NCBI RefSeq assembly: GCF_024223415.1
Contig: NZ_CP100500.1
Length of the DNA: 64,000 nt
Reading direction: 5' to 3' (one strand)
Origin: Escherichia coli
GTDB lineage: Bacteria > Pseudomonadota > Gammaproteobacteria > Enterobacterales > Enterobacteriaceae
Part shown: piece after piece, positions 42,701 to 45,700 of the stretch
How the letters are laid out: every line of letters starts with the position of its first letter
Position numbering within the stretch: the first letter of the stretch is position 1
Made by a program: the position numbers

Positions 42701-45700
42701 TCCGATAAAATGTAAGAGAAGCATGATTGCGTGGTTATTGTTTGTTGATGACTTGCTGACCGAGCCGTCATCATTCTCAATGCATTAGTTAAATTATTTG
42801 TGATTTTTAAGGATTATCCTGTCTATGATTTTCTACTTAGAAGGATATGGCACTAACTATGCATCTTATAGTTTACTGTTGGCATCTATTTAAAATAGCA
42901 TTTGAGTCAAATAGCCCATCAAGATAGCCATACCTAATATAACGGTCAGGAATGCAGCTATCATCGGCATTCTGAACATTGATTTAAGCAATATCACTTC
43001 CGTCAAACTTGCTCCGGCACTGCCGATGATTAATGCCATTAATGCTCCCAGACCCATTCCTTTGGTCATCAAAACAGATGCCAGAGGGATAACTGCCTCT
43101 GCCCGGATATATAGCGGAATACCAACAACGGCGCTCAATGGGATGGCGAAGGGATTATCTGCCCCTGCATGAGCGGCAATCCACGCTGAGGGAATAAAGC
43201 CATAAATAAAAGAGCCTATTAATACCCCTAACAAAAGATATGGCAGTACATCTTTAAACTGTTGCAACGCATCTTTGGTGGCTAGTTTTATGGGATTAAT
43301 ACTTACCACAGTTTTGGTATTGCAACAGTTAACTACGGGTTTCTCAATGGCTTTAGCCGTTGGACTACAGCAACTCACTTCTATTGGCGTATATGTCGTC
43401 CCCGGCAAAGTTTTTGCCGACGCTTTGGCTGGAGCACAACAATTTGCTGATGAGCTTTTACTGGCAATGATATGACGTTCAAACCCCAGAGAATCCAGGA
43501 TAATACTGGCAAGAACGGAGACGCCGGTGGCGATAATCGCGTACAACAAGGTGACTTTCCAACCAAAGGTCACCCACATTAGTCCGACGATAATGGGATT
43601 AAGTAATGGTGAAACAAATAAAAAAGTGAGAGTCGGACCAAACCCGGCTTTCGCTGACAACAATCCACGTAGCATGGGTATTGTCGAGCAACTACAGAAC
43701 GGGGTAACGGCTCCCAACAGAGCAGCCAGGAGATAGCCTCTCCCTTTTCTCGCCCCCATCATCTGCTGGATTTTATGGTCTGGCACCTTTTGTCTTATCA
43801 GGCTGACACCGGCACTAATCACTATAAACAGCAAAGAAAGCTCGACGGCAAGAAACACAAACATCTCTGCGGCATCTTGCAGCATCGCAAGCCAATTACT
43901 CATACGTAACCTCGTTGAATAAATCTATATTTCCAGAATAATCGAAATGAAATTCAGATCAAGATATTTCTGGTATTATCGAAATATCAACCAGACAGAG
44001 GGGGGTCATATGCAGTTGGAAGAAGTCGCTAAAGCGCTGAAAGAGCTAGGTCACCCGACCCGTTTGTTCATATTTAAACATCTTGTCAAAGCCGGGGAAC
44101 AAGGGTTGCCGGTCGGTGAGTTGCAAAAGCAGCTTGGGATACCTGGCTCCACACTCAGCCACCATATATCAGCACTGGTATCGGTAGGACTGGTCAAACA
44201 AAACCGTGAGAGTCGGACGCTGATGTGTGTTTCGCAATACGCAATGCTGGAAGCGATAATTGAATTCTTATGCGAGGAGTGCTGCGTAAATAGCAAAATT
44301 GCCTGATGCGTTACGCTCTACATATTTCATGCCATATATTGGATTTGCACGGTTTTGTAGGTCGGATAAGACGCGTTAGCGTCGCATCCGACATAAACAA
44401 AGCGCACTTTACCAACTATCGGCAGTGGATATCGCCGCTTTATTTCAGGCGCTTACCCGCTTCATCAACCACTTTCTCGCCATCTTCCTTGGAGAATGCG
44501 CCTTTTTGCGCATCTGGCAGAATTTCCAGCACCACTTCTGAAGGGCGGCACAGGCGAGTTCCCAGCGTCGTCACCACAATCGGGCGATTAATCAGAATCG
44601 GGTGCTGAAGCATAAAGTCGATTAACCGATCGTCAGTAAATTTATCTTCCGCAAGGCCCAGCTCCTCATACGGTTCGACGTTTTTACGCAGCAGCGCGCG
44701 TACGGAAATCCCCATATCGGCAATGAGTTTGACCAGTTCATCGCGCGTTGGCGGAGTTTCCAGATAATGGATAATGGTCGGTTCTGTACCGCTGTTGCGG
44801 ATCATCTCCAGCGTATTACGCGATGTGCCGCAGGCCGGGTTGTGATAAATGGTAATGTTGCTCATATCAGTATCTCATTACAAAGTGAAAGAGAGACGTA
44901 GCGCCAGCGCAGCCAGCGTCACAAACAGCACAGGCAGGGTCATGATAATCCCTGTACGGAAGTAATATCCCCAGCTGATAGTCATATTCTTCTGCGAAAG
45001 TACGTGCAGCCAGAGCAGCGTTGCCAGGCTACCAATCGGGGTGATTTTCGGCCCCAAATCGCAGCCAATCACGTTGGCATAAACCATCGCTTCTTTGATA
45101 ACGCCAGATGCCGTGCTGCCATCAATGGACAACGCGCCAACCAGTACCGTCGGCATATTGTTCATAATAGAAGAGAGGAAGGCGGTGAGGAATCCGGTGC
45201 CGAGCGTCGCGGCCCACAGGCCGTTATCCGCCAGCACGTTGAGTACGCCAGAAAGATATTCCGTTAGTCCGGCATTGCGCAGGCCATAAACCACCAGATA
45301 CATGCCGAGCGAGAAGATGACAATCTGCCAGGGCGCACCGCGCAGCACTTTACCCGTATTAATCGCATGACCGCGTTTAGCGACGACAAATAATATCAAC
45401 GCGCCCACTGCCGCAATGGCGCTGACCGGAATGCCGAGCGGTTCCAGGACGAAAAATCCCACCAGCAGAAGCAGTAAAACAACCCAGCCAGTTTTGAACG
45501 TAGCAGGATCTTTAATCGCTTCTGCGGGAGATTTCAGCAGCGCCATGTCGTAGTTCTGCGGAATATCTTTGCGGAAATAGAGATGCAACATCACCAGCGT
45601 GGCAACAATCGCGGCGATATCCACCGGCACCATCACCGAGGCATATTCGCGAAAGCCGAGGCCAAAGAAATCTGCGGAAACGATATTCACCAGGTTGGAG

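Follow-up and report, generated by a model that had tools for sequence, protein, structure and literature searches.

A divergently transcribed ArsR-family regulator and ArsP-family permease beside arsRBC in Escherichia coli: a candidate efflux module for trivalent arsenicals

Why should an Escherichia coli chromosome carry a second sensor and permease of the arsenic type directly beside a canonical arsRBC operon? The question is raised by a stretch of 64,000 nucleotides from assembly GCF_024223415.1 (contig NZ_CP100500.1), referred to here as the window. It comes from an E. coli chromosome of the non-K-12 type and holds, in this order, chuS, dctR, slp, a yhiS-like gene, a permease gene, a regulator gene, arsC, arsB, arsR and gor. 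The permease belongs to the ArsP family and the regulator, here called R2, to the ArsR/SmtB family. In the databases the two are named only "permease" and "ArsR/SmtB family transcription factor", and none of the sources gives a functional name to the permease allele, which occurs in exactly this form on at least 1000 contigs. An initial annotation had taken the pair for a second arsenic-type sensor/permease module with a thiol chemistry of its own, and in outline this was right, as seen from the families, the likeness of R2 to the regulator AfArsR and the linkage to ars genes. The pair is probably an efflux module for trivalent arsenicals, with organoarsenicals as its main substrate.

The two genes diverge from a shared control region next to arsRBC, as had been described; the spacer, estimated then at roughly 100 bp, measures 106 bp. 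This length follows from the start of R2. The R2 open reading frame (ORF) can be opened from 43947, and its real start is the ATG at 44010, which is preceded by a Shine-Dalgarno sequence (GAGGGGGG), gives the MQLEEV start present in all homologues and is also the RefSeq call. Of 5426 complete E. coli genomes, 2225 (approximately 41%) have the same pair at the same site beside arsC. Relatives of the regulator with 90–95% identity occur on 628 enterobacterial plasmids, and those with 60–80% identity on about 2,200 more. Measured against an E. coli allele of 94% identity and a plasmid allele of 83% identity, the ratio of non-synonymous to synonymous substitution rates (dN/dS) is about 0.09 for the permease and 0.03–0.05 for R2, which indicates that both genes are under purifying selection. 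The constant site and the low dN/dS mean that the arrangement is no chance pair of ORFs.

A decaying, non-functional remnant that merely hitch-hikes beside arsRBC might be suspected from the loss of the module in K-12 and CFT073 and from the truncation of the Shigella copies. Such a remnant is hardly credible, however, with both frames intact and dN/dS at 0.03–0.09, with transmembrane cores that are near-identical between E. coli and Aeromonas, with an operator kept across genera (see below) and with so widespread an exact permease allele.

The pair had been thought absent from K-12, and comparison with the K-12 locus confirms it. In K-12, homology to the window extends from arsR across arsC and takes in the final ~70 bp of the R2 gene, a remnant that has decayed there to ...YTMLDAIIGISRREYCVNSKIA*; it restarts 262 bp past the permease stop. 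The missing stretch corresponds to 42629–44236 of the window. Because the K-12 scar retains the 3' end of R2, the comparison indicates that the module was once present at this locus and was then deleted in the K-12 lineage, and not that it was inserted in the carriers. The scar itself is unannotated in MG1655, where positions 4790–4880 of the compared locus (L092), 3' of arsC, align to 44237–44306 of the window. In the uropathogenic E. coli (UPEC) strain CFT073 (L096, 21664–23700), dinQ is followed directly by arsC, and arsR, arsB, R2 and the permease gene are all missing. The ars locus is a hotspot of gene loss in E. coli. The yhiS-like gene of CFT073 is a frameshifted fragment.

The company that the pair keeps in other bacteria was surveyed with one genome per species in 80 loci, mostly from Vibrio, Shewanella, Photobacterium and their relatives, with counts made over 79 of them. 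An R2 orthologue is present in 58 of the 79, mostly adjacent to the permease gene and divergent from it. Ars genes lie within 10 kb of the permease in 7 of the 79, a lower bound, as the automated scan held no references for Acr3, ArsC of the low-molecular-weight protein tyrosine phosphatase type or ArsM; Acr3 and this type of ArsC were recognised by eye, in loci L014 and L048. Besides this window, the loci of Citrobacter, Salmonella, Buttiauxella, Endozoicomonas and Craterilacuibacter have an ars operon around or next to the module. In 72 of the 79 surveyed loci, mostly from marine gammaproteobacteria, no ars gene was recognised within 10 kb.

The linked loci differ in their build. The E. coli order is arsRBC followed by R2 and the permease. 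In Citrobacter, arsRDABC-R2-permease travels as cargo of a lambdoid prophage. The Salmonella island carries arsRDABC and then arsH-R2, divergent from the permease, with an ArsH that is 90% identical to the RefSeq ArsH. The order in Endozoicomonas, all on one strand, is arsR-acr3-arsD-arsA-permease-R2, and in Craterilacuibacter it is arsR (of the AfArsR type)-arsC-arsD-arsA-permease-acr3. IncFIB(K) plasmids of Klebsiella carry, beside arsRDABC, a cluster headed by an R2-like gene of 63% identity, with arsH, a gene for an extracytoplasmic function (ECF) sigma factor, arsD and arsA' after it. In Aeromonas and on several E. coli plasmids the pair stands alone. Linkage to ars genes in at least five architectures is far above what a random gene would show; for a 20-kb window drawn at random from a genome of 4–5 Mb, the chance is roughly estimated at below 1%.

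Some details of these loci were noted in their own right. The Citrobacter block (L006–L008, 3230–9092) lies between replication genes (DnaT, lambda P-like) and those for DinI, RusA and lysis. The Salmonella island encodes a second, different PF03773 permease of 333 aa (L010/L011, 1–1900), preceded by an ECF sigma gene and followed by a Thioredoxin_3 gene, so that two members of the family with different partners share one island. In Klebsiella (L093, 9001–12800), the cluster adjoins pco, and arsA is apparently frameshifted (ORFs of 446 and 187 aa). The ECF sigma factor of this cluster ends in ...SSVCCHKKMD, and a C-terminal CC pair is odd for a sigma factor within an ars cluster. In Vibrio and relatives (L018–L060), the gene for a LysR regulator recurs about 0.5 kb from the permease in 25 loci, and those for a SigZ-type ECF sigma factor and for a PgpB-like phosphatase do so in 11 loci each.

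R2 matches the NCBIfam model HTH_metalloreg (NF033788) with 61.4 bits, above the cutoff of 55. Its AlphaFold2 (AF2) model, with a mean predicted local distance difference test score (pLDDT) of 95, is a winged helix of α1–4, β1–2 and α5, in which DSSP places a strand at residues 70–75 and a helix at 77–90. The best solved relative by sequence is AfArsR of Acidithiobacillus ferrooxidans (6J05, E 4e-10), followed by BigR (2e-7) and YgaV (6e-7); the identity between R2 and AfArsR is 30–32%. AfArsR is also the best fold match (TM 0.88, E 1.9e-8), the next distinct protein being SrnR (1e-5).

R2 differs clearly from the arsR next door. The initial annotation had contrasted the ELCVCDLC site of the latter, which is indeed present there (gene at 46222..46575), with the lack of a helix-located CVC site in R2. 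Type-1 regulators (R773 and the chromosomal E. coli protein) carry Cys32, Cys34 and Cys37 at this site in the DNA-binding helix. At the aligned position R2 has LPVGELQKQL, which contains no cysteine, and PRK10141, which matches the neighbouring arsR, is not among the matches of R2. A C-terminal cluster, FLCEECC, had been proposed to stand in for the missing site. The motif is there in the window, but its first cysteine is peculiar to the strain. A strain with 99.9% identical DNA has FLREECC, and of 121 homologues only 6 have Cys at position 88, where Q, R or M otherwise stands. The conserved set consists instead of Cys73, Cys91 and Cys92, the first of which is invariant.

The further proposal that R2 belongs to the regulators with a C-terminal As(III) site holds in part. 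AfArsR, a type-2 regulator, is the best relative, and its Cys95-Cys96 pair is aligned with Cys91-Cys92 of R2 after α5. An equivalent of Cys102, the third ligand in AfArsR, is missing: R2 has no cysteine after residue 92 and only a 6-residue tail. Conversely, the invariant Cys73 of R2 sits where AfArsR has a tyrosine, and any three-thiolate site in R2 would be built otherwise than that of AfArsR. The α5 helices pack antiparallel in ArsR/SmtB dimers such as CzrA and SmtB. Cys73 of one protomer could therefore lie near Cys91' and Cys92' of the other. A further possible precedent is SpArsR of Shewanella putrefaciens, for which published accounts report that a CC-only site underlies selectivity for methylarsenite, MAs(III) (PMC11868830, PMC13236881). 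As described there, SpArsR likewise has a CC pair and no Cys102 equivalent, and R2 adds to this the invariant Cys73 as a possible third ligand. Among the homologues of the R2 orthologue from Shewanella xiamenensis, whose CC pair stands at 99–100 (101–102 as published for SpArsR), no S. putrefaciens entry was identifiable.

The likeness to BigR and YgaV, second and third among the solved relatives, raises the possibility of a thiol, persulfide or redox system, in which a BigR/SqrR/YgaV-like sensor would control an exporter of reactive sulfur or of an electrophile. Conserved cysteines make a disulfide or polysulfide switch conceivable, and Thioredoxin_3 proteins are paired with other branches of PF03773. 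R2 scores only 39 bits against the BigR model NF040642, however, where the cutoff is 155, and in our own comparison the sensing cysteine pair of BigR and SqrR (one in α2, one at the C-terminus) is not equivalent to Cys73 and Cys91-92. No recurrent sulfur-metabolism genes were seen nearby in the surveyed loci, and such a system would leave the linkage to ars unexplained. It is very unlikely.

R2 probably acts within its own control region. The motif ATTTC-N10-GAAAT, defined by comparative genomics, has only two perfect matches in the whole window. Both lie in the spacer, 37 bp apart from start to start and 20 bp long each, and none lies upstream of arsRBC. Box A, on the R2 side, is kept in all five close relatives examined (E. 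coli, the pO26 plasmid, Aeromonas, Citrobacter and Salmonella). Box B, on the permease side, is kept in E. coli, Aeromonas and Salmonella; Citrobacter has it with one mismatch, and the pO26 plasmid shows none within one mismatch. Over the 79 species-level loci, at about 50% protein identity, at least one box stands upstream of the permease in 73 and at least two in 52. The density of boxes is 5.0 per kb there and 0.074 per kb in the flanks, a 68-fold enrichment. The motif is thus a strong phylogenetic footprint of the predicted R2 operator. Each of the two candidate sigma-70 promoters overlaps one box and has the other downstream.

For the permease, the proposed ArsP/DUF318 assignment was followed up by homology search and stood: Pfam ArsP_1 (PF03773) is matched over the full length (E 6.8e-53, residues 9–334 to model positions 3–293/294). 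The TPFCSCS motif that had been read as typical of ArsP is likewise present, at residues 67–73, but it is not specific to ArsP. It is invariant in 84 family members, and C(S/T)C is conserved family-wide as the most conserved feature of the branches, including that of the Zn/Cu exporters SO_0444/Shew_3410 and that of SaoE. The motif therefore marks the family as a whole and does not point to organoarsenicals. Yang et al., in their 2015 survey of ars-operon transporters, defined an "ArsP cluster 2" by "tPF-C(S/T)C" (PMC4435449), and TPFCSCS, with C(S/T)C in a membrane segment and "tPF" upstream, agrees with this definition. A sequence search of the Protein Data Bank (PDB) with the permease detected no solved relative.

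A soft-metal cation exporter for Zn, Cd, Cu(I) or Hg, like SO_0444 and Shew_3410, would also suit such a protein, its ars neighbours then reflecting the clustering of resistance genes on islands. SO_0444 Cu/Zn efflux (NF033936) is the best NCBIfam match of the permease, Shew_3410, an arsP/DUF318-like gene of Shewanella, is required under zinc stress, CC and CSC motifs bind Hg, Cd and Cu(I) well, and the Klebsiella copies adjoin pco genes. The match to NF033936 reaches only 107.9 bits against a cutoff of 300, however, and that to SaoE (NF040736) 85.2 bits against 325, so that the permease is a member of neither family. Shew_3410 was highlighted together with ZntR (Shew_3411), whereas the permease goes with an AfArsR-like partner. 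SaoE belongs to the SAO selenoprotein locus. Both share the fold family and the CSC motif with the permease, but for neither has an ars linkage been described. Among the 79 loci, moreover, no recognisable metal-cation resistance family recurs, while arsA, arsD, arsH and acr3 do. Export of soft-metal cations is consequently quite unlikely. A copper hit from a Tn5 screen in UPEC CFT073, c4303 (PMC11005409), was considered as a lead in this direction and rejected. CFT073 lacks arsR, arsB and the module, and the hit must therefore concern another gene.

The predicted fold of the permease points to a possible substrate site. Its AF2 model, built with 84 sequences, has a pLDDT of 85.7 and a predicted template modelling score (pTM) of 0.81, falling below pLDDT 50 at residues 159–189. 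Each of its two repeats is made up of a long helix, a helix-break-helix element and a second broken helix, and the two halves show a weak in-register sequence similarity (E 3.7e-4) that pairs Cys70 with Arg267 and Cys72 with Glu269. DSSP of the model puts Cys70 and Cys72 in the break that separates helix 52–66 from helix 71–83. The model matches the DASS/ArsB fold, with two repeats of hairpins and broken helices, and superposes on known members, which carry their substrate sites at the hairpin tips. Cys70 and Cys72 are thus likely to form the tip of the first re-entrant hairpin and the substrate site. The likeness to ArsB and to DASS/INDY, elevator-type members of the ion-transporter superfamily, rests on the predicted model. 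The permease is ~100–200 residues shorter, its identity to them is 8–14% and there is no match at the sequence level. Its hairpin tip is Cys-Ser-Cys, in contrast to the Ser-Asn-Thr-type motif of DASS.

Three vicinal cysteine pairs had been claimed for a loop of the permease, and its central loop has exactly three (C155-156, C178-179 and C193-194). In the alignment, the membrane cores are near-invariant from E. coli to Aeromonas, while the loop is free in length and sequence. It contains cysteines in all 84 relatives (median 7), and 63 of them have one or more CC pairs there. With the first break taken for a re-entrant hairpin on the cytoplasmic side, a hand count with the helix boundaries of the model gives 18–19 Lys/Arg inside and 2 outside, and the loop is therefore probably cytoplasmic. 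The loop of the Craterilacuibacter protein (L014, 10400–10560) holds a near-perfect tandem repeat, ACC-T/V-x-K-P-V-E-P-K, in four copies, which suggests that the loop has grown by slippage of a CC-containing unit.

Which arsenical, then, would be exported? A dedicated inorganic As(III) pump, ArsB or Acr3, almost always accompanies the pair, and in related islands R2 also drives arsH. Both observations favour organoarsenicals, and by analogy with Campylobacter ArsP the methylated and aromatic compounds that had been proposed are plausible: methylarsenite and aromatic As(III) species are the most likely substrates; As(III) and Sb(III) may be carried besides. It could be argued instead that the permease moves inorganic As(III)/Sb(III), either as a back-up pump or coupled to ArsA, and that R2 senses As(III) through a three-thiolate site of Cys73, Cys91 and Cys92. 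In loci L014, L041 and L048, the permease follows directly on arsD-arsA, the usual place of ArsB; the three invariant or near-invariant R2 cysteines suffice for an S3 site; and the CC pairs of the loop resemble the vicinal pairs of ArsD in the same loci. Yet Acr3 is already present in L014 and L048, and ArsB in E. coli, Citrobacter and Salmonella, so that a second inorganic pump would be redundant. R2 is also co-transcribed with arsH, whose product is an oxidase specific for trivalent organoarsenicals (PMC6205960). Furthermore, published work on Campylobacter ArsP describes an exporter of trivalent organoarsenicals that does not carry As(III). A purely inorganic role of the permease is unlikely.

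The Campylobacter jejuni protein, CjArsP (TCDB 2.A.119), which exports MAs(III) and trivalent roxarsone, Rox(III), is also the nearest functional comparison for an organoarsenical exporter. It shares with the permease the Pfam family over its full length, the membrane C(S/T)C and regulation by an ArsR-family protein, and it is encoded beside Acr3, as the permease is beside ArsB. The relationship is distant, however. The permease falls in the "tPF-CSC" cluster 2 of Yang et al., and it is transcribed divergently under its own regulator instead of standing first in an ars operon. The long, disordered, cysteine-rich central loop marks its subfamily; more distant homologues, at 290–320 aa, are too short for such a loop. 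Within the ArsP family, the permease is best placed in a "cluster 2" Cys-loop subfamily, as a member that is still uncharacterised.

The following scheme is inferred as regards the ligand, the DNA binding, the transport direction and what the loop does. A dimer of R2 would bind the two boxes in the spacer and thereby shut both divergent promoters. A trivalent arsenical would be bound by the thiolates of Cys91 and Cys92 at the C-terminal end of α5, and Cys73 at the base of this helix may join in the binding, possibly from the other protomer. Binding of the arsenical would release R2 from the DNA, which would make the module self-contained and autoregulated. The permease, as a compact type of the ion-transporter superfamily, would bind the arsenical as a dithiolate at Cys70-Ser-Cys72 on the cytoplasm-facing hairpin tip and export it, and the disordered cytoplasmic loop with its CC pairs would serve as an arm for capture or hand-off.

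A more specific picture, put forward tentatively, joins an inter-protomer tri-thiolate of Cys73 and Cys91'-Cys92' in R2 with a minimal elevator permease that is fed by a poly-CC arm. The tri-thiolate may then occupy the position of the classical α5 Zn site, and the permease may be related to ArsB and DASS, with the arsenical on its hairpin-tip Cys-Ser-Cys. By analogy with ArsD feeding ArsA, the arm may feed the permease, and in some species ArsA may dock to the permease instead of ArsB.

Several observations weigh against efflux of organoarsenicals by this module. PF03773 also holds Zn/Cu exporters, so that membership of the family leaves the substrate unfixed, and the nearest annotated homologue in the Campylobacterota, the "arsenic resistance permease" of Arcobacter, is only ~27% identical (named Helicobacter homologues, 33–35%). 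Roughly 90% of the species-level loci, as well as the Aeromonas and E. coli plasmid copies, have none of the tested ars genes nearby. Where ArsD and ArsA, which handle inorganic As(III), are linked, they speak against a strict specificity for organoarsenicals. The part given to Cys73 in a regulator lacking the third AfArsR ligand is a putative one, and promoter-like sites in the spacer scan are not above the expectation from shuffled sequences. Our literature search found no experiment on the permease/R2 subfamily or on the E. coli gene pair.

The toxicity of methylarsenite and of the aromatic arsenicals (roxarsone, nitarsone, phenylarsine oxide) far exceeds that of arsenite, and they have been used in raising poultry and swine. 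Should the module export them, gut E. coli, Salmonella, Citrobacter and Klebsiella would share a common resistance determinant that has gone unrecognised. Its carriage as cargo of plasmids and of a prophage makes co-selection with antibiotic resistance possible, and because K-12 has deleted it, arsenic biology and biosensor work based on K-12 are blind to the module. As starting points the analysis provides a structural model, a defined operator and candidate cysteines, three for sensing and two for transport. The features are located in the table.

Table 1. Positions of the permease–R2 module, its candidate control elements and the adjoining operon, numbered from the first letter of the window.
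Feature	Position	Strand	Remarks
Permease gene	42890..43903	-	337 aa; ArsP_1/PF03773 (DUF318); RefSeq coding sequence identical, named "permease"
Central loop, ~residues 141-203	43295..43483	-	disordered, length-variable, Cys-rich, three CC pairs
TPFCSCS, permease residues 67-73	43685..43705	-	invariant in 84 family members
Divergent control region, 106 bp	43904..44009		between permease and R2 starts
Candidate R2 promoter TTGAAT-16-AATAAT	43915..43942	+	consensus match only; overlaps box B
Box B, ATTTCCAGAATAATCGAAAT (ATTTC-N10-GAAAT)	43929..43948		permease side; perfect match
Candidate permease promoter TTGATA-18-TATCTT	43961..43990	-	consensus match only; spacer filled by box A
Box A, ATTTCTGGTATTATCGAAAT	43966..43985		R2 side; perfect match
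ArsR/SmtB-family regulator gene R2	44010..44306	+	98 aa; NCBIfam HTH_metalloreg, Pfam HTH_20 and HTH_5
Cys73 codon	44226..44228	+	strand β2, N-terminal base of α5; in 121/121 homologues
Cys88 codon TGC	44271..44273	+	private R88C variant, outside the conserved site
Cys91-Cys92 codons	44280..44285	+	directly after α5; in 117-118/121 homologues
Canonical arsR-arsB-arsC operon	44440..46575	-	adjoins the module; context, outside the module

On the other side of the module, an intact yhiS-like ORF (41195–42310, minus strand, 371 aa) adjoins the permease gene and is called a "hypothetical protein" in all sources; yhiS of K-12 is interrupted by IS5. A scan with Rfam found nothing inside the module and, near arsR, only the known AgrB small RNA (46726–46809, minus strand, 107 bits), which lies between arsR and dinQ and is ordinary and like that of K-12. 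The stretch 44307–44439, between the stop codons of R2 and arsC, contains a palindromic element (gcctgatgcgttacgc...gtaggtcggataagacgcgttagcgtcgcatccgacat) that resembles repetitive extragenic palindromes (REP) and bacterial interspersed mosaic elements (BIME), and its 38-bp core at ~44356–44393 has matches at many sites across thousands of E. coli genomes.

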